DNA from: an uncultured Acidobacteriota bacterium
Lineage (GTDB): Bacteria; Acidobacteriota; UBA6911
Direction of reading: 5' to 3'
Assembly (NCBI GenBank): GCA_963809485.1
Contig: CAWEJX010000001.1
Location: 320,001-384,000, forward strand
Length of the DNA: 64,000 nucleotides
The notes beneath the pieces are model-generated. The model did no database searches. It was not told where the DNA came from and was given only the letters and a program-made list of their open reading frames with translations. Positions 7,903-22,165 of this stretch are shown here, piece by piece. How positions within the stretch are numbered: the stretch's first letter is position 1; every line of letters starts with the position of its first letter. Both the position numbers and the translations under genes were made by a program.

Positions 7903-8484
7903 ATGAATGGAGTTCAGCAGACGGTGATTTACGAGAAAGCCATGGATCTGCAGTTTCTCAATGAGGTCTATCGCATTCCAGGCGGTGAAAAGATCAAGGA
8001 TTGCATCCAGTGCGGCACCTGCAGCGGATCCTGCCCGGTATCCTGGGCGATGGAGGAAACGCCCCGACAGATATTCGCCATGGTCCGGGCGGGGATGAGG
8101 GATAAGGTATTAGACAGCCTCACGATATGGACCTGTGCGTCCTGCTACCAGTGCATGCATCGCTGCCCTCAGAAGATCAAGATTACAGACATTATGTACA
8201 TGCTTAAGAGAATGGCCATACGGGAGAACCGTCAACGGAGTAAGAATGCGGGCATCATGTCGAGGTCATTCGTGGATATTGTTAACAAGAAAGGCCGCAA
8301 TCACGAGACCTCGCTAATGGTCAAAATCCTGCTGGGCACAAACCCACTTGGGGCGATATCCCTGGCACCTATCGGCATCGGTTTGTACACCCACCATCGC
8401 CTTCCCCTATTCGGGAAAGGAGTTCGCGATATTGTTGGCCTTCGAAAAATCGTTGCCAAAGCTCAAGAATTGGGAGGTGAATGA
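7903..8484 (+). CDS. hdrC: Heterodisulfide reductase subunit C (2x[4Fe-4S])
   Basis: CIQCGTCSGSCP and CASCYQCMHRCP motifs; GGAGG RBS; adjacent to hdrB. Confidence 0.92.
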   Translation: MNGVQQTVIYEKAMDLQFLNEVYRIPGGEKIKDCIQCGTCSGSCPVSWAMEETPRQIFAMVRAGMRDKVLDSLTIWTCASCYQCMHRCPQKIKITDIMYMLKRMAIRENRQRSKNAGIMSRSFVDIVNKKGRNHETSLMVKILLGTNPLGAISLAPIGIGLYTHHRLPLFGKGVRDIVGLRKIVAKAQELGGE

Positions 8485-9350
8485 TGCGTTACGCTTATTA
8501 CCCCGGGTGTTCCCTGGAGGCGACTGGGAGACCCTATGAGGAATCGGTGAAAGCAGTTGCCAAGGCGTTGGGGATTGAGCTGGTGGAGCTTGAAGACTGG
8601 AACTGTTGTGGCGCCACGGCCTATATGAGCGTAAATGAAGTTCTCTCTTTCAGTTTGAGCGCCCGCAACCTGACCCAGGCAAAAAAGATAGGGGACACGT
8701 TGGTCACAGCCTGCAGTGCCTGCTATACGAATTTGCGCAAGACAGAAACCTATCTCGCTGATTTCCCGGAAATTAAGGGCAAAGTTGATGCAGCCCTAGC
8801 AGAGGCGGGTTTAAAGTATGAAGGAGGCGTTGTCACAAAGCACTTTCTTCAGACAGTTGTGCAGGACGTCGGGCTGGATCGGATCAAATCCCTCGTGAAA
8901 ATCCCTCTTTCAGGACTTCGGGTAGCTCCCTATTATGGCTGTCAAATAGCCAGACCTTATGGCATAGAGGACGACTCGGATAATCCGACCATGATGGACA
9001 GGCTGATTGAGGCAATCGGCGCAACTCCGACCAACTATCCGATGAAGACGATGTGCTGCGGCGGCTCTTTGATGGGAATACGCAAGGAGGTTGCGCTTCG
9101 CCTCTGCCGTAATTTGCTTCTCTGCGCCCAGCAGTATGGCGCGCAATGCGTTGTAGTAACGTGCCCGCTATGTCAAATGAACCTGGATGCGTTTCAATCG
9201 GCCATTAACAAGGCCTACGGCACGAGCTTCAATCTTCCAATAGTTTATTTCACTCAATTGATGGGCCTTGCGTTTGGACTGGATTCGAGGGGCCTGGGGC
9301 TGAAGGATTGCATCGTCTCGGCGACGGAAGCCATCGCGAAATACGCATAA
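8481..9350 (+). CDS. hdrB: Heterodisulfide reductase subunit B (two CCG domains)
   Basis: YYPGCS, WNCCGA, ACSAC, YYGC, CCGG, CPLC motifs. Confidence 0.95.
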   Translation: MMRYAYYPGCSLEATGRPYEESVKAVAKALGIELVELEDWNCCGATAYMSVNEVLSFSLSARNLTQAKKIGDTLVTACSACYTNLRKTETYLADFPEIKGKVDAALAEAGLKYEGGVVTKHFLQTVVQDVGLDRIKSLVKIPLSGLRVAPYYGCQIARPYGIEDDSDNPTMMDRLIEAIGATPTNYPMKTMCCGGSLMGIRKEVALRLCRNLLLCAQQYGAQCVVVTCPLCQMNLDAFQSAINKAYGTSFNLPIVYFTQLMGLAFGLDSRGLGLKDCIVSATEAIAKYA

Positions 9351-9359
9351 GGAGATCGC

Positions 9360-10223
9360 ATGAGTACCAAAATTGGCGTCTATGTGTGCCACTGCGGCAC
9401 GAACATCTCCGGCAAAGTGAACGTTGTTGATGTTGCCCAGTTTGCCAGGACCCTGCCCGGCGTGGTAGTAGCCCGGGAGTATAAATTCATGTGCTCGGAT
9501 CCGGGACAGATACTTATTGAGGACGACATCAAAAACCTGGGCCTTGACCGCATCGTGGTGGCCTCATGTTCCCCGCTGATGCACGAACCCACTTTCCGCG
9601 GCGCGTGCGAGAGGGCCAACGTAAACCGCTATCTGTTCCAGATGGCAAATATACGGGAGCATTGCTCGTGGGTAACCGTGGATCCGAACGCGGCAACCGA
9701 AAAAGCCAAGGCTCTGCTTGCCGGTGCAGTCGCCAAAGCCGGCAATCTCCAATCACTGCCGCACAAAACCGTTCCGGTAAATCCAGCGGCTCTTGTGGTG
9801 GGCGCAGGGATTGCGGGGATTCAGGCAGCTCTGGATATCGCCGATGCGGGGCGGACCGTGTATCTGGTCGAAAAACAGCCCTCGATAGGCGGGCACATGG
9901 CCCTGTTCGACAAGACTTTCCCAACCTTGGATTGCGCAGCCTGCATTCTGACTCCCAAGATGGTGCAAGTTGGCAAACATCCGAATATAAAGCTGATGCC
10001 TTCCAGCGAAGTTGAAAAAGTTGAAGGGTTTGTCGGCAACTTCAGTGTAAAGGTCCGACATAAGGCCACTTACGTCGATGCCACCAAATGCACCGGTTGT
10101 GGGCTTTGCTGGGAATCGTGCCCGGCGAGGAAAATCCCTGCAACCCGCGTAATACGCAAAGGCCAACTGGTTATAGGCAGCAGCAAGGGCGGCAACGGAT
10201 TCCTGAAAAGCTCTGTTCGATAA
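9360..10223 (+). CDS. hdrA: Heterodisulfide reductase subunit A, N-terminal half (split HdrA)
   Basis: VYVCHCGTNI, ASCSPLMHE, NIREHCSW, FAD motif GAGIAG, DKTFPTLDCAACIL; ends after one ferredoxin motif CTGCGLCWESCP. Confidence 0.9.
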   Translation: MSTKIGVYVCHCGTNISGKVNVVDVAQFARTLPGVVVAREYKFMCSDPGQILIEDDIKNLGLDRIVVASCSPLMHEPTFRGACERANVNRYLFQMANIREHCSWVTVDPNAATEKAKALLAGAVAKAGNLQSLPHKTVPVNPAALVVGAGIAGIQAALDIADAGRTVYLVEKQPSIGGHMALFDKTFPTLDCAACILTPKMVQVGKHPNIKLMPSSEVEKVEGFVGNFSVKVRHKATYVDATKCTGCGLCWESCPARKIPATRVIRKGQLVIGSSKGGNGFLKSSVR

Positions 10224-10239
10224 TAGATGAAGGCAAAAA

Positions 10240-10605
10240 ATGACAAGCTCGAAAAGCCCCCATTCGATCACACTCGAAGAAGTGAGAAAGCTGCTGGAAG
10301 CAGAGGTGCTTAACGGCAACGACCTCTCGATAAAAGTCGCGGCTGTCGGAGCTGCGGACTTGCTGAGCGACGTGCTCAATACAAGCAAGACGGGAACACT
10401 GCTTTTAACCGGACTGGTCAGCCCACAAGTAATAAGGACTGCCATCGTGGCTGACCTCTGCGGCGTGGTTTTTGTACGCGGGAAGAAGCCCGGGGATGAG
10501 ATTCTCGCGCTCGCGCGGGAATCGAAAATTCCGGTTCTCGGCACGCGGCTCAAGATGTTTGAAGCCGCGGGGCGCCTATACACGGCAATTTCAGGGAACC
10601 GATGA
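10240..10605 (+). CDS. DRTGG-domain protein (hydrogenase regulatory cassette)
   Basis: AADLLSDVL...LLLTGL...VIRTA...VFVRGK pattern. Confidence 0.8.
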   Translation: MTSSKSPHSITLEEVRKLLEAEVLNGNDLSIKVAAVGAADLLSDVLNTSKTGTLLLTGLVSPQVIRTAIVADLCGVVFVRGKKPGDEILALARESKIPVLGTRLKMFEAAGRLYTAISGNR

Positions 10606-11033
10606 TGCATGAGGCATTCGAAAGTGTATATAACGTCCTGGGAAGGGACTTCTCCAATGCCGGAAAGGTTTCCACATCCATCAAGGATACGCTCAAGCGC
10701 CTTGGCGTCAGCCCCACGGTGGTGCGCCGCGTCGCAATCGTGTCCTACGAGGCAGAGATGAACCTGGTCATGTATGCGCATCGGGGAAGGGTCTCGCTCA
10801 GTGTCAGCCCGGATGCGGTGACGCTCAGCATCGACGATGAGGGGCCGGGGATCCCGAATATAGATCTCGCAATGCAGGAAGGCTACTCCACGGCTACTCC
10901 CGAAATGAGGGAAATGGGGTTCGGCGCGGGCATGGGGTTGCCGAACATTAAAAAAAACGCGGATGAATTTGACATCCGCTCCGAAGTCGGTCAAGGCACA
11001 AGCCTTTTCATTCGTGTAAGACAGGCTGCATAG
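10602..11033 (+). CDS. Anti-sigma-factor-like Ser/Thr kinase (RsbT-like GHKL)
   Basis: YEAEMN, DEGPGI, AMQEGYSTA, GFGAGMGLPN. Confidence 0.88.
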   Translation: MMHEAFESVYNVLGRDFSNAGKVSTSIKDTLKRLGVSPTVVRRVAIVSYEAEMNLVMYAHRGRVSLSVSPDAVTLSIDDEGPGIPNIDLAMQEGYSTATPEMREMGFGAGMGLPNIKKNADEFDIRSEVGQGTSLFIRVRQAA

Positions 11034-11039
11034 ACGATA

Positions 11040-12359
11040 ATGGCCCAATACCATCATTCATTGCGTTTTGATCCCGAAAGATGCGAAGGATGCATGTCCT
11101 GCATGCGCGCCTGCCCGACGGCGGCTGTGCGCATCCGCAAAGGCCGGGCCGTAAAACTAGCGGACCGGTGCATCGATTGCGGCGAGTGCATCCGGGTCTG
11201 TCCGCGGGCGGCGATCGTGCCCCTGACAGACCAGATGGCCGACCTGTCCAATTTCGAGCTGAAGGTGGCAATTCCCTCGCCTGCGTTGTACTCCCAGTTC
11301 GACTCGGAAGTTTTCCCGAGCATGATCTTTTCAGCGCTGAAACAATGCGGCTTCGACGACGTCGAGAGCGTTTCCCCCGCCTGCGACGCCGTGACCATTG
11401 CCACGGAGATTTTCCTGAACGAATATCGCGGCGAATACCCGCTGATTTCATCCTTTTGCCCGACAGTCGTCCGCCTCCTTCAGGTCAAGTATCCCGAGCT
11501 GGTAGATCAGCTTCTGCCCGTGCTGGCGCCCAGGGAAATTTCAGCCCGGGATGCGAAGGCGCGCAAATCCAGGGAAACAGGGCTGCCGTCCGAAAAAATC
11601 GGAGCCATCTACATCACGCCGTGTCCCTCCAAGATCGTCGCGATCCTGGAACATCCGGGGATGCGCCGATCCTACCTCGATGCCGCGGTATCCATAAGCG
11701 ATCTGTTCCAGACTCTGGCCGCTGCCGTGTCAAGGATTCAGGAGACCGAGCCTAACATCGACACTGTAGAATCGGCTTCGGGCCTCAGCTGGTCATTCCT
11801 GGAGAAGTTTCCACGGTCGCTGCCTGCGGAAAACACCCTGTCGGTTGCCGGACTGCCGAACGTCATACGGATCCTGGATGACATCGAAAAGGGGCGGCTG
11901 CGCAAATACCGGTACATTGAATGCCACGCTTGCCCCGAAGGATGCGTGGGAGGATGCCTTACTGTCGAAAATCCCTATCTGGCGCGCGGAAAGGCGATCA
12001 AGCTGCAGCAAAGCCTGCCTGCCGGGTGCATTGTGGACAGGCGCGAGGTCGAAGTTTCCTACCGGAAGAAGGAATTTTTAATGGATGAATACCTCGCAGG
12101 CCGTCCGTTGCGGCCATTGGATGCGGATATTTCGGCGGCCATTCATAAAATGAAGGAGCGGGACCGTATTTATGCAGACCTCCCAAAAATCGATTGCGGA
12201 GCTTGTGGCGCGCCTTCTTGCCGGGCATTCGCCGAAGACGTCGTGCTGGGAGAAGCCGACAAGGCTTCCTGCGTTTTTTTCTGGCAGAGAGATCTTGAGA
12301 ATCGCATTGAGCAGCTTGCCGACTTGGTCAGGACTCAAAAGCGAAGCATCGGAGGGTAA
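11040..12359 (+). CDS. [FeFe]-hydrogenase-like Fe-S protein (putative sensory type): N-terminal 2x[4Fe-4S], H-cluster-like domain, C-terminal FeS domain
   Basis: Ferredoxin motifs; variant H-cluster motifs SSFCP / ITPCPSK / ECHACPEGCVGG; C-terminal DCGACGAPSC. Confidence 0.82.
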   Translation: MAQYHHSLRFDPERCEGCMSCMRACPTAAVRIRKGRAVKLADRCIDCGECIRVCPRAAIVPLTDQMADLSNFELKVAIPSPALYSQFDSEVFPSMIFSALKQCGFDDVESVSPACDAVTIATEIFLNEYRGEYPLISSFCPTVVRLLQVKYPELVDQLLPVLAPREISARDAKARKSRETGLPSEKIGAIYITPCPSKIVAILEHPGMRRSYLDAAVSISDLFQTLAAAVSRIQETEPNIDTVESASGLSWSFLEKFPRSLPAENTLSVAGLPNVIRILDDIEKGRLRKYRYIECHACPEGCVGGCLTVENPYLARGKAIKLQQSLPAGCIVDRREVEVSYRKKEFLMDEYLAGRPLRPLDADISAAIHKMKERDRIYADLPKIDCGACGAPSCRAFAEDVVLGEADKASCVFFWQRDLENRIEQLADLVRTQKRSIGG

Positions 12360-12361
12360 CC

Positions 12362-12712
12362 GTGAACATCGCTGATGCCGCAAAAAAGATCGACGGAACC
12401 ATAGTGGCCGGGACCGGAGCTGCCGGTCGTGAGATTCAGGGCGGCTATGCTTCGGATCTGCTCTCGGACGTCATGGGAAACAGCCGGGAGGGCGATATAT
12501 GGGTGACGATGCAGAAGCATGTGAACATCGTCGCCGTCGCCCAGCTGAACGGCCTGGCGGCAATTGTGCTGGTTAACGGGCGGGTGCCTGAGCCGGACAC
12601 GCTGTCCAGAGCCGAAGAAATGGCAATCCCGATCATATCCACTCCGCTGCAGGCTTTTGATGTCATCGGCATTCTATACGGTTTGGATATTCGCGGAAGG
12701 AGGCCCGTCTGA
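12362..12712 (+). CDS. DRTGG / HPr-kinase N-terminal-like protein
   Basis: GGYASDLLSDVMGN...WVTMQKHVNIVAVA pattern; GTG start after GGAGG. Confidence 0.8.
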   Translation: MNIADAAKKIDGTIVAGTGAAGREIQGGYASDLLSDVMGNSREGDIWVTMQKHVNIVAVAQLNGLAAIVLVNGRVPEPDTLSRAEEMAIPIISTPLQAFDVIGILYGLDIRGRRPV

Positions 12713-12714
12713 GG

Positions 12715-14013
12715 GTGTTCATGGTCGATACACACATTCACACCTGCCTCTCACCTTGTGCGGAGCTGGACATGCATCCGGCGGCGCTGATCGATGCCGC
12801 CGTCTGCGCGGGGCTGGATTCCATCGCCATATGCGACCACAACTCGGCCGAGAACGCCGGTGCGGTTCAGCGCGCCGGGCTTGCGGCGGGGCTGGCCGTC
12901 ATCCCCGGGATGGAAATCACCAGTGCAGAGGAAGTTCACATCCTGGGGCTGCTGCCCGACCTGGAATCCGCAATGGCTCTCCAGTCCAAAGTTTACAGGT
13001 CGCTGCCCGGGCGAAACGACGAAAATACATTCGGGATGCAGGTCGTGGCGAATGAGTTCGCCGAAGTCCTCGGATTCAATGAGCACTTGCTCGCGGGAGC
13101 GACAACTCTGAGCCTCGAGGCGGTTGTGGCGGCGATTCACTCCGTGGATGGACTGGCTGTAGCTTCCCACGTGGACCGGGAAGGTTTTGGAATCATCGGC
13201 CAGCTGGGCTTCATTCCCCCGGAACTGCCCCTGGATGCGATCGAAATATCGCAGCGAATGCCGCTGACCCGGGCGCGGGCAACCTACGCTCCCAGAGGGG
13301 AGCACCCGATTCTCTGCGCATCCGACGCCCATGAACCCAAGGATATCGCACGGGCGGCGACCTATATCCTGATGGAGCAGGCCACTCTGCAGGAACTGCG
13401 CCGGGCCCTGACCGGAGAGGGAGGGCGCACAATTCTCGGCGGAGGAAGGCCCATGGAAGATCTTGCATTGCACATCCTGGATATAGTGCAGAACAGTCTG
13501 GAGGCCGGCGCGGCGATGATCGAGATCGGGATTAGCGAGGATCCAGGGGAAGACCGGATGACGATCGAAGTCCGGGACAACGGACGCGGAATGGATCCGG
13601 AAACCGTCGCGAAAGTCACCGATCCGTTTTTCACCACGCGAACAACCCGCAGGGTCGGCATGGGGCTTCCCCTTCTGGCCGCCGCAGCCAAAGCGGCCGG
13701 GGGAGAGCTTACCGTCGATTCAAAGCCCGGATCGGGGACACTTATCCGCGCGACCTTCCAGCACGGTCACATGGACAGGGCGCCGCTGGGCGATATCGAA
13801 ACGACTCTGATGGTGCTCCTGGCGGGTCAGCCGGACCGGAACATATGCTTCAGGCACCGGGTGAATGACCGGGAATTCGAGCTGGATTCCCGGGATTTCC
13901 TCGCGGCGGACATTGATCTGTCCTCGCCGATCGGGCTGGCGATTTTACGGGAGGCGATCCGTAAAGGCGAGGCCGGCTTGCAGTTTTCCGTACACGGCCG
14001 CCGTGGAGTGTAG
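12715..14013 (+). CDS. PHP-domain phosphoesterase fused to a stand-alone HATPase_c (histidine-kinase-like) domain
   Basis: DTHIHTCLSPC, CDHNS, SDAH (PHP), then MEDLALHILDIVQNS, DNGRGM, DPFFTT, GMGL (GHKL). Confidence 0.85.
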   Translation: MFMVDTHIHTCLSPCAELDMHPAALIDAAVCAGLDSIAICDHNSAENAGAVQRAGLAAGLAVIPGMEITSAEEVHILGLLPDLESAMALQSKVYRSLPGRNDENTFGMQVVANEFAEVLGFNEHLLAGATTLSLEAVVAAIHSVDGLAVASHVDREGFGIIGQLGFIPPELPLDAIEISQRMPLTRARATYAPRGEHPILCASDAHEPKDIARAATYILMEQATLQELRRALTGEGGRTILGGGRPMEDLALHILDIVQNSLEAGAAMIEIGISEDPGEDRMTIEVRDNGRGMDPETVAKVTDPFFTTRTTRRVGMGLPLLAAAAKAAGGELTVDSKPGSGTLIRATFQHGHMDRAPLGDIETTLMVLLAGQPDRNICFRHRVNDREFELDSRDFLAADIDLSSPIGLAILREAIRKGEAGLQFSVHGRRGV

Positions 14014-14090
14014 GAAATGCCATTAACTGCGCCGGACGGAGTCGGCACCCCGTCCTTAGACAGAGCGCGATCAGTGAATCGGAGGCAAAT

Positions 14091-14597
14091 ATGGTTGATG
14101 TTTCGAAGGTAAAGGAAATCCTGGATCGGCACGGTGCGAAGCGCGAGCGCATGATTGCCATACTGCTCGACTGCCAGGAGGAATATTATCACCTGCCACG
14201 CGAAGTGCTGGAAGCAGTCTCGGCAGGAGTCAATATCCCCCTGGCATCGGTCCTGGCGATCGCGACCTTCTTTAAGGCCTTCAGCCTAAAACCAATCGGG
14301 CGCTATCCGATCCGCGTCTGCAACGGTACAGCCTGCAACATCAAGGGCGGACCTCTGCTGGTGGATGCCTTGGAGCGCGAACTGAAGATCAAGAAGGGAG
14401 ACACGACAGCGGACAACCTGTTCGGGCTGGACACGCTGAACTGCGTCGGCTGCTGCGGACTGGCTCCGGTCATCACGGTGGGCCAGGACGTGCACGGGAA
14501 AGTGAAGATATCCTCCATACCCAAGATGGTTAAGCAATACCGTCCGAAGGACCGGACGGATTCGAAGGAGGGGCAAGATGGCGAGACTGTCCATTGA
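14091..14597 (+). CDS. NuoE/HydC/HndA-like [2Fe-2S] subunit
   Basis: VCNGTAC...NCVGCCGLAPV thioredoxin-like [2Fe-2S] motif. Confidence 0.92.
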   Translation: MVDVSKVKEILDRHGAKRERMIAILLDCQEEYYHLPREVLEAVSAGVNIPLASVLAIATFFKAFSLKPIGRYPIRVCNGTACNIKGGPLLVDALERELKIKKGDTTADNLFGLDTLNCVGCCGLAPVITVGQDVHGKVKISSIPKMVKQYRPKDRTDSKEGQDGETVH

Positions 14598-14961
14598 TGA
14601 CCTGAAGAAAATCCGGGAGGACGCAAAGCGCACATTGACTCTGAGATCGGGCGAAGCGCGCGCCAAGGTTACCATTCACATGGGCACCTGCGGCATTTCC
14701 GCAGGTGCGCGCAATGTCATGGGCGCCCTGCTGAAAGCGATTGAAGACCTCAAAATAACCGACGTGATTGTCACGACTTCTGGCTGCGCCGGACTGTGCA
14801 GCCGGGAGCCGATGGCGACAGTCGAAATTGCGGGTCAGACCCCCGTAAAATACGCGGACCTGAAACCCGAGTCCATCGTGAGAGTGCTCAAGGATCATGT
14901 TCTCGAGGGCAAAATTGTCACCGAGTATGCCCTCGCAAGCGGCTGTGAAACTACCGGCTAG
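14578..14961 (+). CDS. Thioredoxin-like [2Fe-2S] ferredoxin (HndB/HydD-like)
   Basis: MGTCGISAGAR...SGCAGLCSREP; lies between nuoE-like and nuoF-like genes. Confidence 0.88.
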   Translation: MARLSIDDLKKIREDAKRTLTLRSGEARAKVTIHMGTCGISAGARNVMGALLKAIEDLKITDVIVTTSGCAGLCSREPMATVEIAGQTPVKYADLKPESIVRVLKDHVLEGKIVTEYALASGCETTG

Positions 14962-14978
14962 ACAGCCGGCTGGGAGGT

Positions 14979-16829
14979 GTGAATATCATGGCATTCCGCA
15001 CACATGTGTTGGTTTGCGCAGGAACCGGATGCGTTTCCGGCAACTCTTACGCAACGGCAACGGCTCTTGAAACCGAAATTTTTAAAAAAGGCCTCGCACA
15101 GGAAGTACAGGTCATCCGGACGGGTTGCCAGGGATTCTGCGCTGAAGGCCCCATCGTCATCGTGCAGCCGGATGGGGTTTTCTATTGCGGCGTCAAAGCG
15201 AAGGATGCGCCTTTCCTTGTCGAAGAACATCTCGTAAAGGGCCGGCCCGTTAAAAAGCTGATGTATACGCCGCCTGAGACCAAGGGCCCGATTCCGGCAC
15301 TGAAGGAAATTCCTTTCTTCGCCAAACAGAAACTGGTGGTGCTCAGGAACCGGGGCGTCATCGATCCGGAAAAAATCGATGATTACATCGCGGTGGACGG
15401 CTACACGGCGATTGAAAAGGCTTTGTTCCAGATGACTCCGGAACAGATCATCTCGGAGATCAAGCGATCAGGACTGCGCGGCCGCGGCGGCGGCGGATTT
15501 CCGGCCGGTGTCAAGTGGGAGACATGCCGCCATGCCGCACAGCACCGCGGCGTGGAACCGGTGATCGTGTGCAATGCCGACGAGGGGGATCCCGGCGCCT
15601 TCATGGACCGCAGCATTATCGAAAGCGATCCGCATTCTGTGATCGAGGGAATGATCATTGGCGCCCGGGCGATCGGATGCAAGGAGGGATTTGTTTATAT
15701 CCGCCGAGAGTATCCCATCGCACGGGAGCGCCTTCTGAAAGCCCTGGAACAGGCGCGCGCATACGGCCTCCTCGGCACCGATATCCTGGGCAGCGGGATG
15801 GATTTCGACATAGAGATCGTCCAGGGTGCCGGAGCTTTCGTATGCGGCGAGTCCACGGCCCTGATGGCTTCCCTGGAAGGGAATGTCGGGGAGCCGAGAG
15901 CTAAATATATCCATACTGTCGAGTATGGATACAAGAACCGCCCGACAAATCTCAACAACGTGGAAACCTGGGCCAACGTGCCGCTGATCATAAACCGCGG
16001 CGCGCACTGGTTCGGCTCGATGGGAACCGGCAGCGTCGCCGAAAACCCGTGGAGCGGCAGCAGCGGAACAAAAGTCTTCTCGATGGTCGGGAAGATCAAC
16101 AACACAGGCCTGATCGAAGTCCCTATGGGCATCTCGCTGCGCGAGATAATTTTCGACATCGGCGGAGGGATCCCCGGAGGCAGAAAGTTTAAGGCCGTTC
16201 AGACCGGAGGGCCTTCCGGCGGTTGTCTGCCTGAATCCCACCTCGACATGCCCGTCGATTTCGACAGCCTGACGGAAGCGGGTTCCATGATGGGCTCGGG
16301 CGGGATGATCGTGATGGACGACCAGACCTGCATGGTGGATGTGGCCCGCTACTTCATTGCCTTCCTGACAGAGGAGTCGTGCGGCAAATGCTCCCCCTGC
16401 CGTGAGGGACTCAGAACCTCCCTCGATGTCCTCGACCGGATCACCCAGGGCAAGGGAGCGCCGGGCGACATTGAGCTGCTCCAGGAAATTGCAGAGGTCA
16501 TGCAGGACTGCTGCCTCTGCGCCCTCGGGACCTCGGCGCCGAATCCCGTTCTCTCGACCCTCCGCTACTTTAAGGATGAGTACGATGCGCACATCAAAGA
16601 GCATCGCTGCCCGGGTGGAGTCTGCAAGGAACTGATCGAATACACCATCGATCCTGATAAATGCGACGGATGCCACGCCTGCGTGCGGGGTTGCTCGGTA
16701 CAGGCTATTACGGGTGATGTAAAGAAAACTCATACACTGGACAAGGCCAAGTGCATCAAATGCGGGGCGTGTATCGAAGCCTGCAAGCGTGATGCAGTCC
16801 AGAAGGTACCCAGGAGCTATGCGGCATGA
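14979..16829 (+). CDS. NuoF/HydB/HndC-like FMN- and NAD(P)H-binding subunit with N-terminal [2Fe-2S] and C-terminal 2x[4Fe-4S]
   Basis: RGRGGGGFP, NADEGDPGAFMDR, GGPSGGC, ESCGKCSPCREG, HRCPGGVC, two C-terminal ferredoxin motifs. Confidence 0.95.
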   Translation: MNIMAFRTHVLVCAGTGCVSGNSYATATALETEIFKKGLAQEVQVIRTGCQGFCAEGPIVIVQPDGVFYCGVKAKDAPFLVEEHLVKGRPVKKLMYTPPETKGPIPALKEIPFFAKQKLVVLRNRGVIDPEKIDDYIAVDGYTAIEKALFQMTPEQIISEIKRSGLRGRGGGGFPAGVKWETCRHAAQHRGVEPVIVCNADEGDPGAFMDRSIIESDPHSVIEGMIIGARAIGCKEGFVYIRREYPIARERLLKALEQARAYGLLGTDILGSGMDFDIEIVQGAGAFVCGESTALMASLEGNVGEPRAKYIHTVEYGYKNRPTNLNNVETWANVPLIINRGAHWFGSMGTGSVAENPWSGSSGTKVFSMVGKINNTGLIEVPMGISLREIIFDIGGGIPGGRKFKAVQTGGPSGGCLPESHLDMPVDFDSLTEAGSMMGSGGMIVMDDQTCMVDVARYFIAFLTEESCGKCSPCREGLRTSLDVLDRITQGKGAPGDIELLQEIAEVMQDCCLCALGTSAPNPVLSTLRYFKDEYDAHIKEHRCPGGVCKELIEYTIDPDKCDGCHACVRGCSVQAITGDVKKTHTLDKAKCIKCGACIEACKRDAVQKVPRSYAA

Positions 16830-18583
16830 AAACCATCAAAATTAAGATCGACGATATCGAAACCGAAGCCGAGGACAGGACACCGATCCTCTCCATTGCG
16901 CAGAAACTCGGGATCAAGATCCCGACCCTGTGTCACCACCCGCTCCTGGAGCCATACGGCGTCTGCCGCATATGTACCGTCGAGGTAAGATCCGGCAAAC
17001 GTGTCCGCATGGTGACGGCGTGCAATTACCCCGCAACCAACGGCATCGAGGTTCTGACGAATTCGCCCCGCGTCCGGCGCGACCGGAGACTGATCCTCGA
17101 GTGGATGATGGCACGCTGCGGGCATGTCAAAGTCATCGAGGATCTGGCTGCAGAGTACGGCATCAAAGAACCCAGGTTCGGGCGCGGCGACGATGACTGC
17201 ATCCTGTGCGGGCTGTGCGTGCGCGTATGTTCTGATGTCGTCGGCGCCAATGTGCTCGGCTTCTTCAACCGCGGAGCGACGCGCGAGGTTTCGACTGCCT
17301 ATGGCGAAACCTCGGACAAATGCATCGCGTGCGGGTCCTGCGCTTTCGTATGCCCGACAGGAGCGATTCAGATAGAAAACGACTCGGCCCTGGTCCGCGA
17401 GGCTCTTCCGCTCGGTCCGCTGACTCCCATTCACGTCCCCTTCCTGCAGGCTGTGCCGCACCAGCCGGTAATCGATCGCGACTCCTGCATCCATTTCAAG
17501 ACCGGTGGATGCAAGGTCTGCGAAAAAGTCTGCGAGGTCAAGGCTGTGAATCATGCCCAGGAGGATGTGATCGAAAATATCGAGGTTGGAGCGGTTATCC
17601 TCGCCACAGGCTTTCAGCAGTTCGATGCCAAAAGAGTCTCGGAATACGGCTACGGCGTCTACCCGAATGTATTGACCGGCCTCGAGTTCGAAAAGATGAA
17701 CAGCGCTTCGGGCCCGACCGGTGGACAGATTATGCTGCAAAACGGGCAGGCGCCGAAAAGCGTGGGCATTATCCACTGCGTCGGAAGCCGCGACGAGCGC
17801 AACAATAAGTACTGCTCCCGCGTCTGCTGCATGTACGCATTGAAGTTCGCCCACCTGATCAAGGAAAAGACCGGAGCGGACGTGTATAACTTTTACATCG
17901 ACATGCGCTGCTTCGGGAAGGGCTACGAGGAATTCTATCACCGCCTGCTCGAGGAAGACGTGCGCTTCATCCGCGGACGCGCCGCGGCGATCACGGATTT
18001 CCCGTTCAACGAGCAGGAAGTCGGCAAACTGATCATCCGTGTGGAAGACACATTGATCGGCCAGGTGCGGCGCGTCCCTGTCGACATGGCCATCCTGGCT
18101 ACCGGCCTTGAGCCGGCGGCGGACGCCACGGATGTCGCCCATACTTTCAACATAAGCTGCGGTGGCGGATTCTTCACGGAACGGCATCCGAAACTTGCTC
18201 CGGTGTCCACCCCAACGGACGGCATATTTATTGCGGGCACGTGCCAGGGCCCGAAAGACATCCCTGATACGGTTGCACAGGCTGGCGCCGCCGCGTCCGC
18301 AGTCCAGTCCCTCATATCCAGGGGGGAGATCGAGGTTGAGTCGGCCACCAGCGTAGTGGATGCGGAAAAGTGCTCAGGCTGCCGACTCTGCAACACTCTC
18401 TGTTCGCTCTCGGCCATCACATTTGACGAAGAGAAAAAGGTCACCGTTATTAATGATGTATTGTGCAAGGGATGCGGCACCTGTGCCGCCGCGTGCCCCA
18501 GCAGCGCCATTCTGGCGCGGCACTTCACCGATGAACAGTTGTTCTCCGAAATAGAAGGGGTGCTGTATGACGTTCGAGCCTAA
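16826..18583 (+). CDS. hdrA: Fusion of a NuoG/HydA-type N-terminal Fe-S domain ([2Fe-2S] + 2x[4Fe-4S]) with the C-terminal half of HdrA
   Basis: IPTLCHH..GVCRICTVE..TACN, CILCGLCVRVC, CIACGSCAFVCP, then HdrA motifs PFLQAVP, ILATG, CVGSRD, YCSRVCCMYALK, GTCQGPKDI and C-terminal ferredoxin. Confidence 0.9.
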   Translation: MKTIKIKIDDIETEAEDRTPILSIAQKLGIKIPTLCHHPLLEPYGVCRICTVEVRSGKRVRMVTACNYPATNGIEVLTNSPRVRRDRRLILEWMMARCGHVKVIEDLAAEYGIKEPRFGRGDDDCILCGLCVRVCSDVVGANVLGFFNRGATREVSTAYGETSDKCIACGSCAFVCPTGAIQIENDSALVREALPLGPLTPIHVPFLQAVPHQPVIDRDSCIHFKTGGCKVCEKVCEVKAVNHAQEDVIENIEVGAVILATGFQQFDAKRVSEYGYGVYPNVLTGLEFEKMNSASGPTGGQIMLQNGQAPKSVGIIHCVGSRDERNNKYCSRVCCMYALKFAHLIKEKTGADVYNFYIDMRCFGKGYEEFYHRLLEEDVRFIRGRAAAITDFPFNEQEVGKLIIRVEDTLIGQVRRVPVDMAILATGLEPAADATDVAHTFNISCGGGFFTERHPKLAPVSTPTDGIFIAGTCQGPKDIPDTVAQAGAAASAVQSLISRGEIEVESATSVVDAEKCSGCRLCNTLCSLSAITFDEEKKVTVINDVLCKGCGTCAAACPSSAILARHFTDEQLFSEIEGVLYDVRA

Positions 18584-19007
18584 AATCGTTGGCATTCTCT
18601 GTAACTGGTGTTCCTACACCGGCGCGGATCTGGCGGGCACATCCCGCATCAAGTATTCACCAAACGTCCGGGTCGTCCGCGTCATGTGCTCCGGCAGGGT
18701 CGATCCCACCTTCATCCTGAAGGCGTTTGCCGACGGCGCGGACGGCGTGCTGGTGGCGGGCTGCCATCCCGGCGACTGCCATTACATCGAAGGGAATTAT
18801 AAGACCATTCGCCGCATGGCCCTTCTGAAGCACATGCTGGCGGACTACGGAATAGAGCCGGAGCGGTTTCGACTGGAATGGGTGTCGGCAGGCGAAGGAG
18901 ATCGTTGGGCTCATGTGGTCAATGCAATCACCGAAGATGTTCGGAAACTTGGGCCTACCAAAATAAAGCCACGGGCCAGAAAAAAGACATCTTCATCAGC
19001 GGCATAA
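18567..19007 (+). CDS. mvhD: Methyl-viologen-reducing hydrogenase delta subunit MvhD/FlpD
   Basis: LCNWCSYTGADLAG, VMCSGRVDP, GCHPGDCHY. Confidence 0.95.
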   Translation: MTFEPKIVGILCNWCSYTGADLAGTSRIKYSPNVRVVRVMCSGRVDPTFILKAFADGADGVLVAGCHPGDCHYIEGNYKTIRRMALLKHMLADYGIEPERFRLEWVSAGEGDRWAHVVNAITEDVRKLGPTKIKPRARKKTSSSAA

Positions 19008-19084
19008 GGGACATTAAGATGCGGTCGCAAGTCGCAAACCTGAGACCTGGGACCTGGGACTGAATTTTGAAAGTGGAGGCATGG

Positions 19085-20041
19085 ATGGCAAAACTTAAGC
19101 TGGCATCATATTGGGCTGCAGCCTGCGGAGGATGCGATGTCGCCATCCTCGATTTACACGAGAAAATACTCGACCTCGCCGCCGCAGCGGACATCGTCTT
19201 TTGGCCGATTGCCACGGATTTCAAATACAGCGATGTGGAGGCAATGCCCGACGAAAATATCGACGTAACTCTCTTCCACGGAGCCGTGCGCAACTCGGAA
19301 AATGAGCACCTGGCCCGTCTTTTGAGGGCAAAATCCAAGGTTCTTGTGGCATTCGGATCGTGCGCCCATATCGGCGGAATTCCGGGGCTGGCAAACCTTT
19401 TCACAAAAGAAGAGATTTTCAAGCGCATCTACCACGAAACGCCGTCCACCGTGAATGCGGAGAATTTCGAGCCTCAGCCGAAGCTGGCGGTAGCCGAAGG
19501 AGAGGTGACAATCCCGGAATTCTACAACACGGTCAAGACGCTCGACCAGACGGTGGACGTCGACTATTACATGCCCGGCTGCCCCCCGACGCCCAAGCAG
19601 ATCTGGAATGTCGTCCAGGCGATTGTGGGCGGGCAGCTTCCGCCCAAGGGTTCGGTTATCGGGGCCTCCGAAAAGACCCAGTGTGACGAATGTCCGCGCC
19701 CGAGGAAGGAAAAGAAGATTACGGGTTTCAAGCGGATAGCAACCGCCCAGCCGGATCCGGACACCTGTTTCCTGGAGCAGGGATTTCTGTGCCTGGGTCC
19801 CGTTACGCGAGGCGGATGCGATGCCCGGTGCCAGAATTCCGGCGTCCCCTGCCGAGGCTGTTATGGTTCTCCGGCCGGTGTCCTTGACATGGGGGCCAAA
19901 GCCATATCGGCGATAGCATCGGTCATCGAGGCTAAAGAAGAAGCCGAAGTGGAACGTATCATCCAGCAAATCCCGGATACTCTCCGCAGTTTTAACCGGT
20001 TCGGAATTCCAGCATCACTCATCACAAGGAAAATATCATGA
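19085..20041 (+). CDS. mvhG: Group 3c [NiFe]-hydrogenase small subunit MvhG
   Basis: ACGGCD, GSCAHIGGIPG, PGCPP, CLGPVTRGGC..C...PCRGC; ATG 19085 after GGAGG. Confidence 0.92.
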   Translation: MAKLKLASYWAAACGGCDVAILDLHEKILDLAAAADIVFWPIATDFKYSDVEAMPDENIDVTLFHGAVRNSENEHLARLLRAKSKVLVAFGSCAHIGGIPGLANLFTKEEIFKRIYHETPSTVNAENFEPQPKLAVAEGEVTIPEFYNTVKTLDQTVDVDYYMPGCPPTPKQIWNVVQAIVGGQLPPKGSVIGASEKTQCDECPRPRKEKKITGFKRIATAQPDPDTCFLEQGFLCLGPVTRGGCDARCQNSGVPCRGCYGSPAGVLDMGAKAISAIASVIEAKEEAEVERIIQQIPDTLRSFNRFGIPASLITRKIS

Positions 20042-21501
20042 AACGCATTTCGATTGATCCCATTACAAGGCTTGAAGGGCATGGAAAGATAGACATCTTC
20101 CTCGCAGACGACGGAAGTGTAGCGAACTGCTACTTCCAGGTGCCCGAGCTGCGCGGATTCGAGAAGTTCGTAGAGGGGATGCCGATAGAGGAAGTCCCGC
20201 GGGTGGTGTCGCGGATCTGCGGCGTCTGACCGGCCTCACACCACCTGGCCTCGGGTAAGGCCGCAGATGCAGTCTACAAGGTCGATCCGCCTCCTGCAGC
20301 AAAAAAGCTCCGCGAGATGTACAACGCGGCAGCCTTCGTTCATAGCCACATCGCCCACTTCTATGCCCTCGCAGCACCGGACTTTGTCTTGGGTCCTGAT
20401 TCCGATCCCGCAAAACGCAACATTTTGGGTGTCGTTGAAAAAGTGGGCATACCGATAGCAGGCGAGGTTTTGAAACACCGCGCCATCGCCCAGGATATCC
20501 AGATTACGGTGGGGGGCAGGTCTACGCATCCCGTGTGGACTCTTCCCGGAGGAGTATCCAAGGGAATAACCGAAGAGCAGCGCAAAGAAATAATAGAAAA
20601 AGCAAAATCCTGCGTGGAGTTCTCAAAGTTCTCCCTGAAGCTGTTCGAAGACGTAGTGCTGAAGAACAAGGCCTACCTGGATATCATCCTGTCCGACATT
20701 TTCGAAATGGACAGCTACTGGATTGGCACTGTCGATTCAAAGAATTGCGTGAACTTCTACCATGGCGATCACAGAATAGTGGATCAAAAAGGCAAGGAAG
20801 TATTCCGGTACAAGGACCACGAGTATCTCGACTTCATCTCGGAGCGCGTGGAGAAATACAGCTATCTGAAATTCCCATATCTGAAAAAGATCGGCTGGCA
20901 GGGGTTTGTGGATGGGCCGTCTTCGGGTGTGTATATGGCAACTCCGCTGTCCAGGCTGAACGCAGCCGATGGCATGGCTACTCCATTGGCCCAGGAAGAG
21001 TATGAAAAAATGTACAGCACTCTGGGAGGCAAGCCCATAAAGAAGCTTATGGCGACGCACTGGGCCAGGCTTGTCGAATTGCTTTATGCAGCGGAAAGAC
21101 TGCTGGAACTGGCACAGGATCCGGAGACAGCTTCGCCCAACATCCGGACGCTTCCCACGGCAACGCCTGAAGAGGGCGTGGGAATCGTGGAGGCGATGCG
21201 CGGAATTCTCACCCATCATTACAAAACGGACAAGAACGGCCTTGTTACGGAAGCCAACCTGATCGTCGGCACGACCAACAACAATGCTCCGATCTCGATG
21301 TCCATCAAACGTGCCGCGCAGAAATTGATCCAGCCGGGCAAGGAAGTCGGACAGGGTCTGCTGAACATGGTCGAAATGGCCTTCCGGCTCTACGATCCCT
21401 GCTTCTCCTGCGCGACGCACTCGCTGCCCGGCCAGATGCCCTTAATCGTGGAAGTGATCAACGCCGACGGAAAAATCATTCATCGGGAGGGCCGGAACTA
21501 G
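20038..21501 (+). CDS. mvhA: Group 3c [NiFe(Se)]-hydrogenase large subunit MvhA, 487 aa, read through TGA (probable selenocysteine) at codon 64
   Basis: Track ORFs 20038-20229 and 20317-21501 are in the same frame: ITRLEGHG...RICGV(TGA)PASHH...YDPCFSCATH plus cleavable C-terminal tail. Confidence 0.9.
20245..20266 (+). promoter_or_regulatory. Putative bacterial SECIS hairpin
   Basis: GGCCT-CGGGTA-AGGCC (20247-20262); apical loop begins 22 nt after the TGA at 20227-20229, with G in loop position 2. Confidence 0.65.
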
Positions 21502-21661
21502 CGGGCGCAGAGGACCTCCGCCAGGTTGAACGGTTGCACCTTGAACGTTGAAAGAACACCCTGGGTCCACAAGGCGACATGGAAAACCTTTGAGCTCGGA
21601 TACGAACAATCCCGGTCCCGACACCTTGAAATCTGCACGCATTGGCGGGGCGACAAAAACC

Positions 21662-22165
21662 ATGAAGGTCCGCATTATCGGTCTGGGCAACTCGATACTC
21701 ACCGACGACGGCGTTGGCATCTACACCGCCCGCGAGGTGGCAAGACGTCTATCCGCGGCCGGCCTCCGGGACCGCGTGGACATTGTGGAATCGGAAGTGG
21801 CAGGGTTTGCCCTTATGGAACTGATGGCCGGTTGGGATCGCATCATTCTGATCGATTCCGTCCAATTCGAGGGATTGGAATCCGGCACAGTGATCCGTAT
21901 CGCGCCCGAAGATCTTCACACGTCCCTGCGACTGCGTTCCGTGCACGACATCGATCTGCCGACAGCGCTTGAACTGGCCCGACGGATGGGAATCGCCATG
22001 CCCCGCGATCTCATGATTTTCGGCATTCAGGCGGAGGACTGGCTGACGCTCGGCGAATCCCTGACCGATGCGGCAGAACGCGGCATGAAGACAGCCGCAG
22101 ACCTCGTCCTTTCCGAACTGGATCGGGAAGGAGCAATGAATCCGAGATCCGAAATTCGGAACTGA
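21662..22165 (+). CDS. Hydrogenase maturation endopeptidase (HycI/HybD family)
   Basis: IIGLGNSILTDDGVG, ILIDS, SVHD; directly after mvhA. Confidence 0.92.
   Translation: MKVRIIGLGNSILTDDGVGIYTAREVARRLSAAGLRDRVDIVESEVAGFALMELMAGWDRIILIDSVQFEGLESGTVIRIAPEDLHTSLRLRSVHDIDLPTALELARRMGIAMPRDLMIFGIQAEDWLTLGESLTDAAERGMKTAADLVLSELDREGAMNPRSEIRN

Follow-up and report, generated by a model that had tools for sequence, protein, structure and literature searches.

An HdrA divided between two polypeptides in an operon that joins two known bifurcating systems in uncultured Acidobacteriota

We analysed a 64,000-nucleotide stretch of DNA (the window) from an uncultured Acidobacteriota bacterium of the UBA6911 lineage (GenBank assembly GCA_963809485.1, contig CAWEJX010000001.1, positions 320,001 to 384,000 of the forward strand), in which subunit A of the heterodisulfide reductase (HdrA) is encoded in two pieces by open reading frames (ORFs) of 287 and 585 amino acids (aa). 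Both ORFs belong to a run of 16 genes, all on the + strand between positions 7903 and 22165 of the window and either overlapping or separated by short gaps, which were assigned by Pfam and PDB searches of the window proteins. The run opens with HdrC (7903..8484), a 2x[4Fe-4S] ferredoxin-like subunit recognised by the Pfam Fer4 dicluster families and syntenic in the 22 loci compared throughout this work (the window, four complete loci of congeners, and 17 distant loci for which 16 genomes were drawn on). It is followed by HdrB with two CCG domains (8481..9350; PF02754 in 2 stretches, E=3e-28) and by the first HdrA piece of 287 aa (9360..10223). A block of putative regulators comes next, comprising a DRTGG-domain protein (10240..10605; PF07085, E=2e-8), an anti-sigma- or kinase-like HATPase_c protein (10602..11033; PF02518, PF13581), a HydS-like protein related to [FeFe]-hydrogenases and a putative sensor (11040..12359; PF02906, E=1e-28, PF04060 and Fer4), a second DRTGG-domain protein (12362..12712; PF07085) and a protein with PHP and HATPase_c domains (12715..14013; PF02811, PF13263, PF02518). 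Downstream of this block lie a NuoE/HndA/BfuC-like [2Fe-2S] subunit (14091..14597; PF01257, E=4e-42), a small thioredoxin-fold protein without a Pfam match (14578..14961), which we take to be HndB-like on account of its position and Cys pattern, and a NuoF/HydB/BfuB-like subunit for flavin mononucleotide (FMN) and nicotinamide adenine dinucleotide (NAD(H)) with N-terminal [2Fe-2S] and C-terminal 2x[4Fe-4S] domains found by Pfam and PDB searches (14979..16829). The 585-aa ORF (16826..18583) precedes MvhD (18567..19007; PF02662 FlpD, E=8e-56), the MvhG-like small subunit (19067..20041; PF01058, Oxidored_q6) and the MvhA-like large subunit (20038..21501; PF00374 when an in-frame TGA is read as U) of a [NiFe] hydrogenase, and a hydrogenase maturation protease whose start codon is uncertain (21548..22165; PF01750 HycI).

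The stop codon of NuoF and the start codon of the 585-aa ORF share the sequence ATGA, and the 585-aa ORF and mvhD share 17 nucleotides; these overlaps suggest co-translation. A scan for promoters and terminators returned counts not above those of shuffled sequences, and no intergenic terminator was detected on the + strand. From a sequencing run guessed to be RNA, 39 partial reads were obtained, all but one less than 95% alike and nearly all falling in NuoF bins.

The first HdrA piece carries the N-terminal cluster motif VCHCGTNI, the GAGIAG motif (residues 148-153) and a single ferredoxin motif, exactly where a first-pass annotation of this DNA had placed them. The latter, CTGCGLCWESCP (residues 244-255), contains the first Cys motif of the ferredoxin inserted in HdrA, here termed M0 (residues 244-254). 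Residues 3-256 align with solved HdrA structures, for example with 5odc_A residues 5-258 (E=1e-97). The four Cys of the N-terminal cluster (C10, C12, C45 and C70) all lie in this piece and are nearly invariant in alignment A3, and its DCAAC motif includes C195, which was equated by eye with Cys197 of solved HdrA from the 5odc alignment. Following CTGCGLCWESCP, a tail of 32 residues precedes the stop codon. This tail is conserved with the pattern CPxRxIPxxRxIxKGxLxI and present in 22/22 loci, in every one of which the stop codon lies 22-45 residues past M0.

The second piece begins 6.6 kb downstream of the first. Its residues 4-184 match the solved, stand-alone NuoG-like BfuA chain 9mqx_A (E=5e-37), which belongs, by its search listing, to the Wor-Bfu paper PMC12318220. 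This N-terminal domain comprises PF13510 and two CxxCxxCxxxC motifs, M1 (CILCGLCVRVC, residue 125) and M2 (CIACGSCAFVCP, residue 166), the spacing of which is canonical for the 2x[4Fe-4S] domain of BfuA/NuoG. The site of the His-ligated cluster is absent, residues 79-126 containing one Cys and one His; the 9mqx_A match and this count bear out the earlier description of a HydA/NuoG-type domain devoid of that cluster. M2 is followed by a linker and by a further motif, M3 (CIHFKTGGCKVCEKVC, residues 221-236). Residues 156-582 match 5odc_A residues 236-652 (E=3e-109). The segment PIHVPFLQAVP marks the start of the homologous HdrA part, and the C-terminal ferredoxin motifs are located at residues 516 and 547. 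Cys318, Cys330, Cys334, Cys335 and Lys340 correspond to Cys386, Cys399, Cys403, Cys404 and Lys409 of 5odc and are invariant or nearly so in alignment A2. A GxGxxG motif was not found anywhere in the 585-aa ORF. The protein thus resumes HdrA as had been proposed, and the second half of HdrA occupies the place which the catalytic domain has in a HydA or BfuA subunit.

The 5odc alignments of both ORFs locate the break inside the inserted ferredoxin, directly after its first motif, in agreement with the first-pass annotation. The same annotation described the halves as complementary and non-redundant. They are complementary, as residues 5-258 and approximately 268-652 of 5odc are accounted for and no essential gap remains, but the term non-redundant needs a qualification, as one motif overlaps in the alignment: HMMER and MAFFT place CIACGSCAFVCP on the same HdrA motif as CTGCGLCWESCP. 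This overlapping M2 belongs with M1 to the BfuA-type 2x[4Fe-4S] domain. All constituents of HdrA were found over the two chains, namely the N-terminal cluster Cys with DCxxC, the domain for flavin adenine dinucleotide (FAD) with its ligands and both ferredoxins. They do not form a single polypeptide of about 650 aa, and since two ORFs 6.6 kb apart are present in 22/22 loci, we file the protein as a split variant rather than a canonical HdrA.

It had further been proposed that both the FAD site and the two clusters of the inserted ferredoxin are built in trans. The GxGxxG motif is confined to the 287-aa piece, while the Cys of the cluster in the thioredoxin-reductase (TrxR) domain and the flavin-adjacent Lys340 are confined to the 585-aa piece. 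Because GxGxxG and Cys318/330/334/335 with Lys340 sit on different pieces, the FAD site falls across a subunit interface, and neither piece is expected from these motifs to bind FAD alone. Assembly of the FAD site in trans is therefore well supported, by the division of motifs as well as by the strands of the complex model described below. For the two ferredoxin clusters, we infer ligation in trans by M0 and M3 as the simplest reading: the 16 Cys in four motifs of the CxxCxxCxxxC type fit four clusters only if M1 pairs with M2 and M0 with M3.

Modelling of the complex of the 287-aa and 585-aa proteins gave an ipSAE score of 0.80 (runs 0.80, 0.84 and 0.80), as compared to 0.00 for the best of 3 controls. 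The mark applied to such models was reached by 58/80 solved complexes and 2/110 mismatched pairs, counts which are rough as own alignments were used. The runs share at least 90% of contacts, and the partner pLDDT is 86-88. The modelled chains join through a pair of strands, 143-148 from the 287-aa piece and 253-260 from the 585-aa piece, and the interface is formed by M0 and the tail (243-275) on one side and by Cys221/229/232/236 of M3, M2 (166-175) and strand 253-260 on the other. The two halves are hence predicted to fold together.

The split is not an assembly artefact, because contigs of relatives from independent metagenome runs, in which about 5-8 letters in 100 differ from the window over the listed pieces, bridge both junctions. 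The gene order HdrC-HdrB-HdrA(N)-[regulators]-NuoE-HndB-NuoF-[BfuA-N::HdrA-C]-MvhD-MvhG-MvhA recurs in 22/22 loci examined, with variation by feature, and these loci represent at least 13 families within a single phylum, the source names being Acidobacteriota, Candidatus Aminicenantes/Aminicenantales and Candidatus Fischerbacteria. All 22 loci retain intact copies of M0, M1, M2, M3 and the two C-terminal motifs. The regulator block is present in 18/22 (in one of these without the HydS-like gene), HndB in 21/22, the following MvhD-MvhG-MvhA in 19/22, and a NuoF with an extra NfnB/GltD-like domain in 5/22. The four complete congener loci comprise the same sixteen genes in the same order with 72-98% protein identity, and in each of the 17 distant loci HdrC-HdrB-HdrA(N) lies upstream, with NuoE and NuoF placed between the halves. 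Of 24 other species of the genus, 9 have a complete fusion ORF and a further 3 a partial one. Among 401 genomes sampled across the phylum, 25 from 13 families contain an ORF (533-618 aa) that spans the junction, with 46-91% identity over the first 300 residues, and two others of this sample encode extended versions of about 1080 aa. The window fusion protein falls in a 90% cluster of 155 members. The junction is spanned by 13 of the best 150 of 18,435 representative matches (50%-cluster representatives) and one related cluster member is labelled Ca. Sumerlaeota; the architecture therefore probably extends beyond one phylum. The uniqueness implied by the first-pass annotation was not confirmed: the arrangement is an old, widespread operon type and not a local event.

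Both halves are under strong purifying selection, and the relaxed selection typical of an inactivated gene was not observed. Pairwise comparisons with the four congeners, from which those with saturated dS were left out, gave approximate ratios of nonsynonymous to synonymous substitution rates (dN/dS) of 0.03-0.05 for the 287-aa piece, 0.06-0.11 for its tail, 0.02-0.05 for the BfuA domain, 0.01-0.05 for the junction and 0.04-0.06 for the HdrA-C part, and the neighbouring genes showed values similar to both HdrA halves. Taken together, we conclude that the split HdrA is real and functional, and not a broken gene. A mosaic of dS values, noted for window positions 8481-16829, was seen against the closest congener, G006 (locus L033). 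HdrB, the majority of the regulator genes, NuoE, HndB and NuoF give 0.22-0.39; HdrC, HdrA(N), the HydS-like gene, the fusion and MvhDGA give 0.69-1.55. The pattern might stem from recombination or codon bias.

Naturally fused proteins link the same parts. P0133 (660 aa) carries the region from the FAD strand to M0, a BfuA-like domain, and then M3 with HdrA-C in one chain. Two genomes of the same genus, G022 (L039, 5545-13065) and G023 (L038), contain a paralogous form of the locus encoding a 310-aa protein in which the HdrA FAD strand and M0 are fused to NuoE, a 1065-aa protein in which NuoF is fused to an NfnB-like domain, and a 1102-aa protein with the architecture BfuA-N::HdrA-C::HdrA-N, followed by MvhD. 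These fusions support a physical association of the pieces. NuoF proteins of about 1020-1046 aa with C-terminal Fer4_20 and Pyr_redox_2 domains occur in loci L049, L050, L052, L053 and L056 (e.g. L050:6823-9957); such an NfnB/GltD-like extension would give the complex a third flavin site and perhaps NADPH. The genome of the window itself encodes giant HdrA-like ORFs of 1035-1532 aa with repeated or permuted HdrA parts (C1:477477-486000, C3:1938-6380 and C17:137373-170371), one of which adjoins a NuoG-like ORF with an in-frame TGA and is reminiscent of Bam-type clusters.

An unsplit HdrA was found in G030 (L040, 9252-11354, minus strand), where it sits in a plain HdrCBA-MvhDGA locus and aligns up to its first ferredoxin motif with the 287-aa ORF and over the whole remainder with the 585-aa ORF. 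FastTree trees were calculated from 55 sequences of the C-half (301 columns, none dropped) and from 32 of the N-half. Both place the 22 loci in broadly the same subclades, and this congruence fits co-inheritance of the halves. The C-half tree nests the G030 protein within the split clade with local supports of 0.95-0.98, and the N-half tree does so weakly, with 0.56; the split clade itself is supported at only 0.69 and 0.33, respectively. The G030 protein may be a secondary re-fusion, or the trees may be misrooted. A simple insertion into an unsplit operon of the G030 kind was also considered as the origin of the split and may apply, though the C-half tree places the G030 protein among split forms. 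The C-x7-C form of M3 was considered as a marker of the split clade and rejected, as it occurs in 29 of the best 150 representatives, unsplit forms included.

With respect to the genes around the HdrA pieces, residues 5-610 of NuoF match 7t2r_B residues 3-597 (E=4e-233), further matches being 7q4v_B, 9mqx_B and 8a6t_B, and Pfam identified Complex1_51K, NADH_4Fe-4S and Fer4. NuoF thus has the domain set of BfuB, and the PF01257 subunit and the N-terminal domain of the 585-aa protein provide BfuC and a BfuA with clusters A1, A2 and A4. The MvhA-like subunit contains RICGV(TGA)PASH and LYDPCFSCATH, which correspond to the motifs L1 (ICGxCxxxH) and L2 (DPCxxCATH) (PMC6085437), and with MvhD and MvhG alongside it is assigned to group 3c [NiFe] hydrogenases. 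The in-frame TGA of mvhA (20227-20229) falls on the second Cys of the N-terminal L1 motif (RICGV-TGA-PASH). Among the 21 loci with a match, TGA was found at this position in 6 and Cys in 14, the remaining match (L046) being a distant paralogue. The genome encodes a 640-aa ORF with a SelB domain, and the TGA probably specifies selenocysteine; a candidate hairpin folds downstream. Known [NiFeSe] enzymes, unlike the protein described here, carry selenocysteine at the C-terminal motif.

The HydS-like protein matches HydA H-domains weakly, its H-cluster motifs are all degenerate (SSFCP instead of TSCCP, TPCPSK instead of MPCxxK, and CPEGCVGG), and a PF04060 iron-sulphur (FeS) domain forms its C-terminus. 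The degenerate motifs would fit a sensor better than a catalytic hydrogenase. The HydS-like, DRTGG, HATPase and PHP proteins form an optional block, which we take to be regulatory and probably to respond to H2; it resembles the sets of regulators found beside HydABC operons.

The gene order resembles that of a HdrCBA-MvhDGA operon interrupted by 6.6 kb, and one may ask whether a foreign hyd-type cassette inactivated hdrA and left both ORFs as remnants, with only the NuoEF/BfuA or the Mvh part being functional. The unsplit HdrCBA-MvhDGA locus of G030 and the lower dS of the intervening block against G006, as compared to the Hdr and Mvh genes, would agree with such an event. Nevertheless, we regard it as extremely improbable, since the split is found in 22/22 loci of 13 families at 50-94% protein identity, the dN/dS of either half is as low as 0.03-0.05 and that of the tail 0.06-0.11, no cofactor motif is damaged and fused variants exist. 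Alternatively, the genes of two enzymes might be interleaved, namely an NAD-linked hydrogenase composed of NuoEF, BfuA::HdrA-C and MvhDGA which works without HdrBC or the 287-aa piece, and a second enzyme in which the 287-aa piece serves another, HdrA-like partner whose gene lies elsewhere. The genome has many HdrA paralogues, including the ORFs of 1035-1532 aa, and HdrA modules are widely shuffled; yet the 585-aa protein lacks GxGxxG and could not bind FAD alone, HdrC, HdrB and HdrA(N) are located directly upstream in all 22 loci, the half-trees are broadly congruent and the model predicts a complex of the two pieces. An interleaving of two enzymes therefore appears improbable.

A different pairing of the ferredoxin motifs deserves somewhat more consideration, though we still judge it unlikely. 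The 585-aa protein could form the inserted ferredoxin in cis from M2 and M3, with the BfuA domain keeping one [4Fe-4S] cluster or pairing M1 with M0 and the FAD site still being formed in trans. HMMER and MAFFT aligned M2 exactly onto the first HdrA motif, and in the distant fusions P0125, P0129 and P0143 the canonical HdrA linker EFDxGL...PFPQAVP follows M2. These observations are opposed by the canonical BfuA/NuoG spacing of M1 and M2 within the region that matches 9mqx_A (residues 4-184, E=5e-37), by the four Cys which M0 keeps in 22/22 loci, and by P0133, which retains M0, M1, M2 and M3 in one chain. The 16 Cys suit four clusters only as M1+M2 and M0+M3, and in the model M0 is predicted to touch the M3 region.

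Returning to the split HdrA with M0 and M3 shared between its pieces, we consider it likely that the locus encodes one oxidoreductase, in which HdrB, HdrC and the two-piece HdrA are combined with NuoE-HndB-NuoF and, in most genomes, with the Mvh [NiFe] hydrogenase, and in which the low-potential arm of HdrA is hard-wired to the HydBC/Bfu-type module; such an enzyme would be a Mvh-Hdr-Bfu supercomplex. We infer the composition of this complex, its electron path, its substrates and its direction. The 287-aa piece provides the N-terminal cluster domain, the FAD domain's strand-helix-strand for dinucleotide binding, and M0; the 585-aa piece provides M3, the remaining FAD domain with its [4Fe-4S] site and flavin-adjacent Lys, and the C-terminal ferredoxin. 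Located directly ahead of M3, the BfuA domain would set its distal cluster beside the inserted ferredoxin of HdrA. In BfuA subunits having just clusters A1, A2 and A4, the connection is made via A4 (PMC9304861), and BfuA is described there as an electron carrier connecting a third substrate with BfuBC, the core at which NAD(H) and ferredoxin are handled. With BfuA fused directly before M3, the simplest reading connects the low-potential arm of HdrA to the Bfu core, and the bifurcation sites of HdrA (FAD) and NuoF (FMN/FeS) would consequently lie in series. The C-terminal HdrA arm would stay available to MvhD and MvhAG.

In the oxidative direction, high-potential electrons would reduce a disulfide at HdrBC, and low-potential electrons would pass from BfuA to NuoF/NuoE, where NAD+ and ferredoxin would be reduced. 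Overall, H2, the disulfide at HdrBC, NAD(H) and ferredoxin would be coupled. The reverse would also be possible, with NADH and reduced ferredoxin driving H2 formation. The first-pass annotation had the BfuA domain feed electrons from NuoF into the inserted ferredoxin. As written, this direction is not supported, since the inserted ferredoxin is the low-potential output in solved complexes (PMC9012536); in known Hdr, as that paper describes it, one electron pair exits via the TrxR-domain cluster to HdrBC and the other via the inserted ferredoxin to free ferredoxin. From this comparison, a flow from HdrA to the Bfu module appears at least as likely as the opposite one, which may be possible if the complex runs in reverse, though the role of the arm in known enzymes would disfavour it.

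Several observations count against a single, hard-wired enzyme. In 3/22 loci MvhGA does not adjoin the core, and the hydrogenase is therefore not obligatory. The dN/dS values are approximate because dS is often above 1 and saturated in some pairs, and one copy of the fusion gene (G018:C9:123725-125189, a 79%-identical match) contains 6 in-frame TGA codons; it could be frameshifted, decayed or an assembly problem. The pass of the complex model may reflect memory, because single-chain HdrA has already been solved, and would then attest likeness and not binding. In class II benzoyl-CoA reductase (BCRII), the one solved complex with modules of both types, the BfuA homologue BamI feeds the C-terminal ferredoxin of HdrA instead of the inserted one (bioRxiv 10.64898/2026.04.10.717634). 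The wiring proposed here is without solved precedent.

A more far-reaching idea is offered tentatively, as we think it rather less probable than its opposite: the complex might be a natural 'double bifurcation' machine. Low-potential electrons from the HdrA flavin would travel through the ferredoxin formed in trans and the BfuA adaptor to the HydBC-type site, none being released to free ferredoxin at HdrA, and one complex would couple H2, a disulfide, NAD(H) and ferredoxin. Dividing the flavin site between two genes would make the assembly of HdrA dependent on the Bfu module.

Electron bifurcation is the route by which strict anaerobes reach very low redox potentials. The operon is found widely among the uncultured Acidobacteriota (Aminicenantes, Fischerbacteria and their relatives) of soil, wetland and subsurface habitats. 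It can serve as a clear natural example in which a flavin site, and probably also a two-cluster ferredoxin fold, is distributed over two polypeptides, with fused and re-fused variants for comparison. Current annotations name the halves 'heterodisulfide reductase subunit A', '4Fe-4S binding protein' or 'hypothetical', and pipelines which count HdrA, HydABC or group 3c hydrogenases will therefore misread these genomes. In a passage of the BCRII preprint, two bifurcation modules in one supercomplex are said not to have been described before that enzyme (bioRxiv 10.64898/2026.04.10.717634); if the interpretation given here is true, the operon would encode a second, differently wired supercomplex of this kind.

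Compared with known systems, the operon shares with MvhADG-HdrABC of methanogens (solved as 5odc, 8rvu, 7bkb and 9sfi) the HdrB with two CCG domains, HdrC and the set of MvhD, MvhG and MvhA, as well as all HdrA domains and cofactor motifs, the halves matching at E values of about 1e-98 and 1e-116. Unlike in that complex, HdrA consists of two polypeptides, the second of which has an N-terminal BfuA domain, and NuoE, HndB and NuoF lie between them; moreover, the host is a bacterium without coenzyme M and coenzyme B. The Bfu family (HydABC, NiFe-HydABCSL, NfnABC, Stn and Wor-Bfu), as presented in PMC9304861, has in common with the operon a BfuB-like NuoF, a BfuC-like NuoE and a BfuA with [2Fe-2S] and 2x[4Fe-4S] clusters. 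Schut et al. (2022, PMC9304861) give the same BfuA cluster set, devoid of the His-ligated cluster, for clade 45 of the family (Bam-, Wor-, F420- and FdhH2-Bfu). The BfuA described here differs from this family in carrying the C-terminal two thirds of HdrA, which a second polypeptide completes. An HdrA-linked BfuA type was not found in the passages of PMC9304861 covered here; according to the same text, metagenomic data were excluded and 18/57 clades were left uncharacterised. Literature searches, Aminicenantia included, returned no description of this HdrA split, supplements not being covered, such that an earlier listing is possible.

Two further systems come closer in design. BCRII (BamBCDEFGHI) likewise combines, as its preprint outlines, a HydBC-type module (BamGHI) with an HdrA-type module (BamE with BamD and BamF), the two being connected through the C-terminal ferredoxin of BamE (bioRxiv 10.64898/2026.04.10.717634). 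Its HdrA domains are permuted, duplicated and fused according to that text, whereas HdrA is split here. In addition, BCRII has a tungsten subunit, whereas none of the 16 genes matched the AOR family of the tungsten-containing BamB type in Pfam; BamB with BamC is thus lacking and the operon is not a member of the Bam type. In HdrA9-11 of ANME-1 archaea, a foreign redox domain likewise interrupts the inserted ferredoxin and provides a second site of potential bifurcation (Chadwick et al. 2022, PMC9012536); the foreign domain is there an NfnB-like one of about 500 aa inside one polypeptide. The operon, by contrast, has a BfuA-type FeS domain as the insert and a divided gene, with entire genes (NuoE, HndB, NuoF and the regulators) located between the halves. 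Set beside these relatives, the operon joins two known bifurcating systems, MvhADG-HdrABC and the Bfu family.

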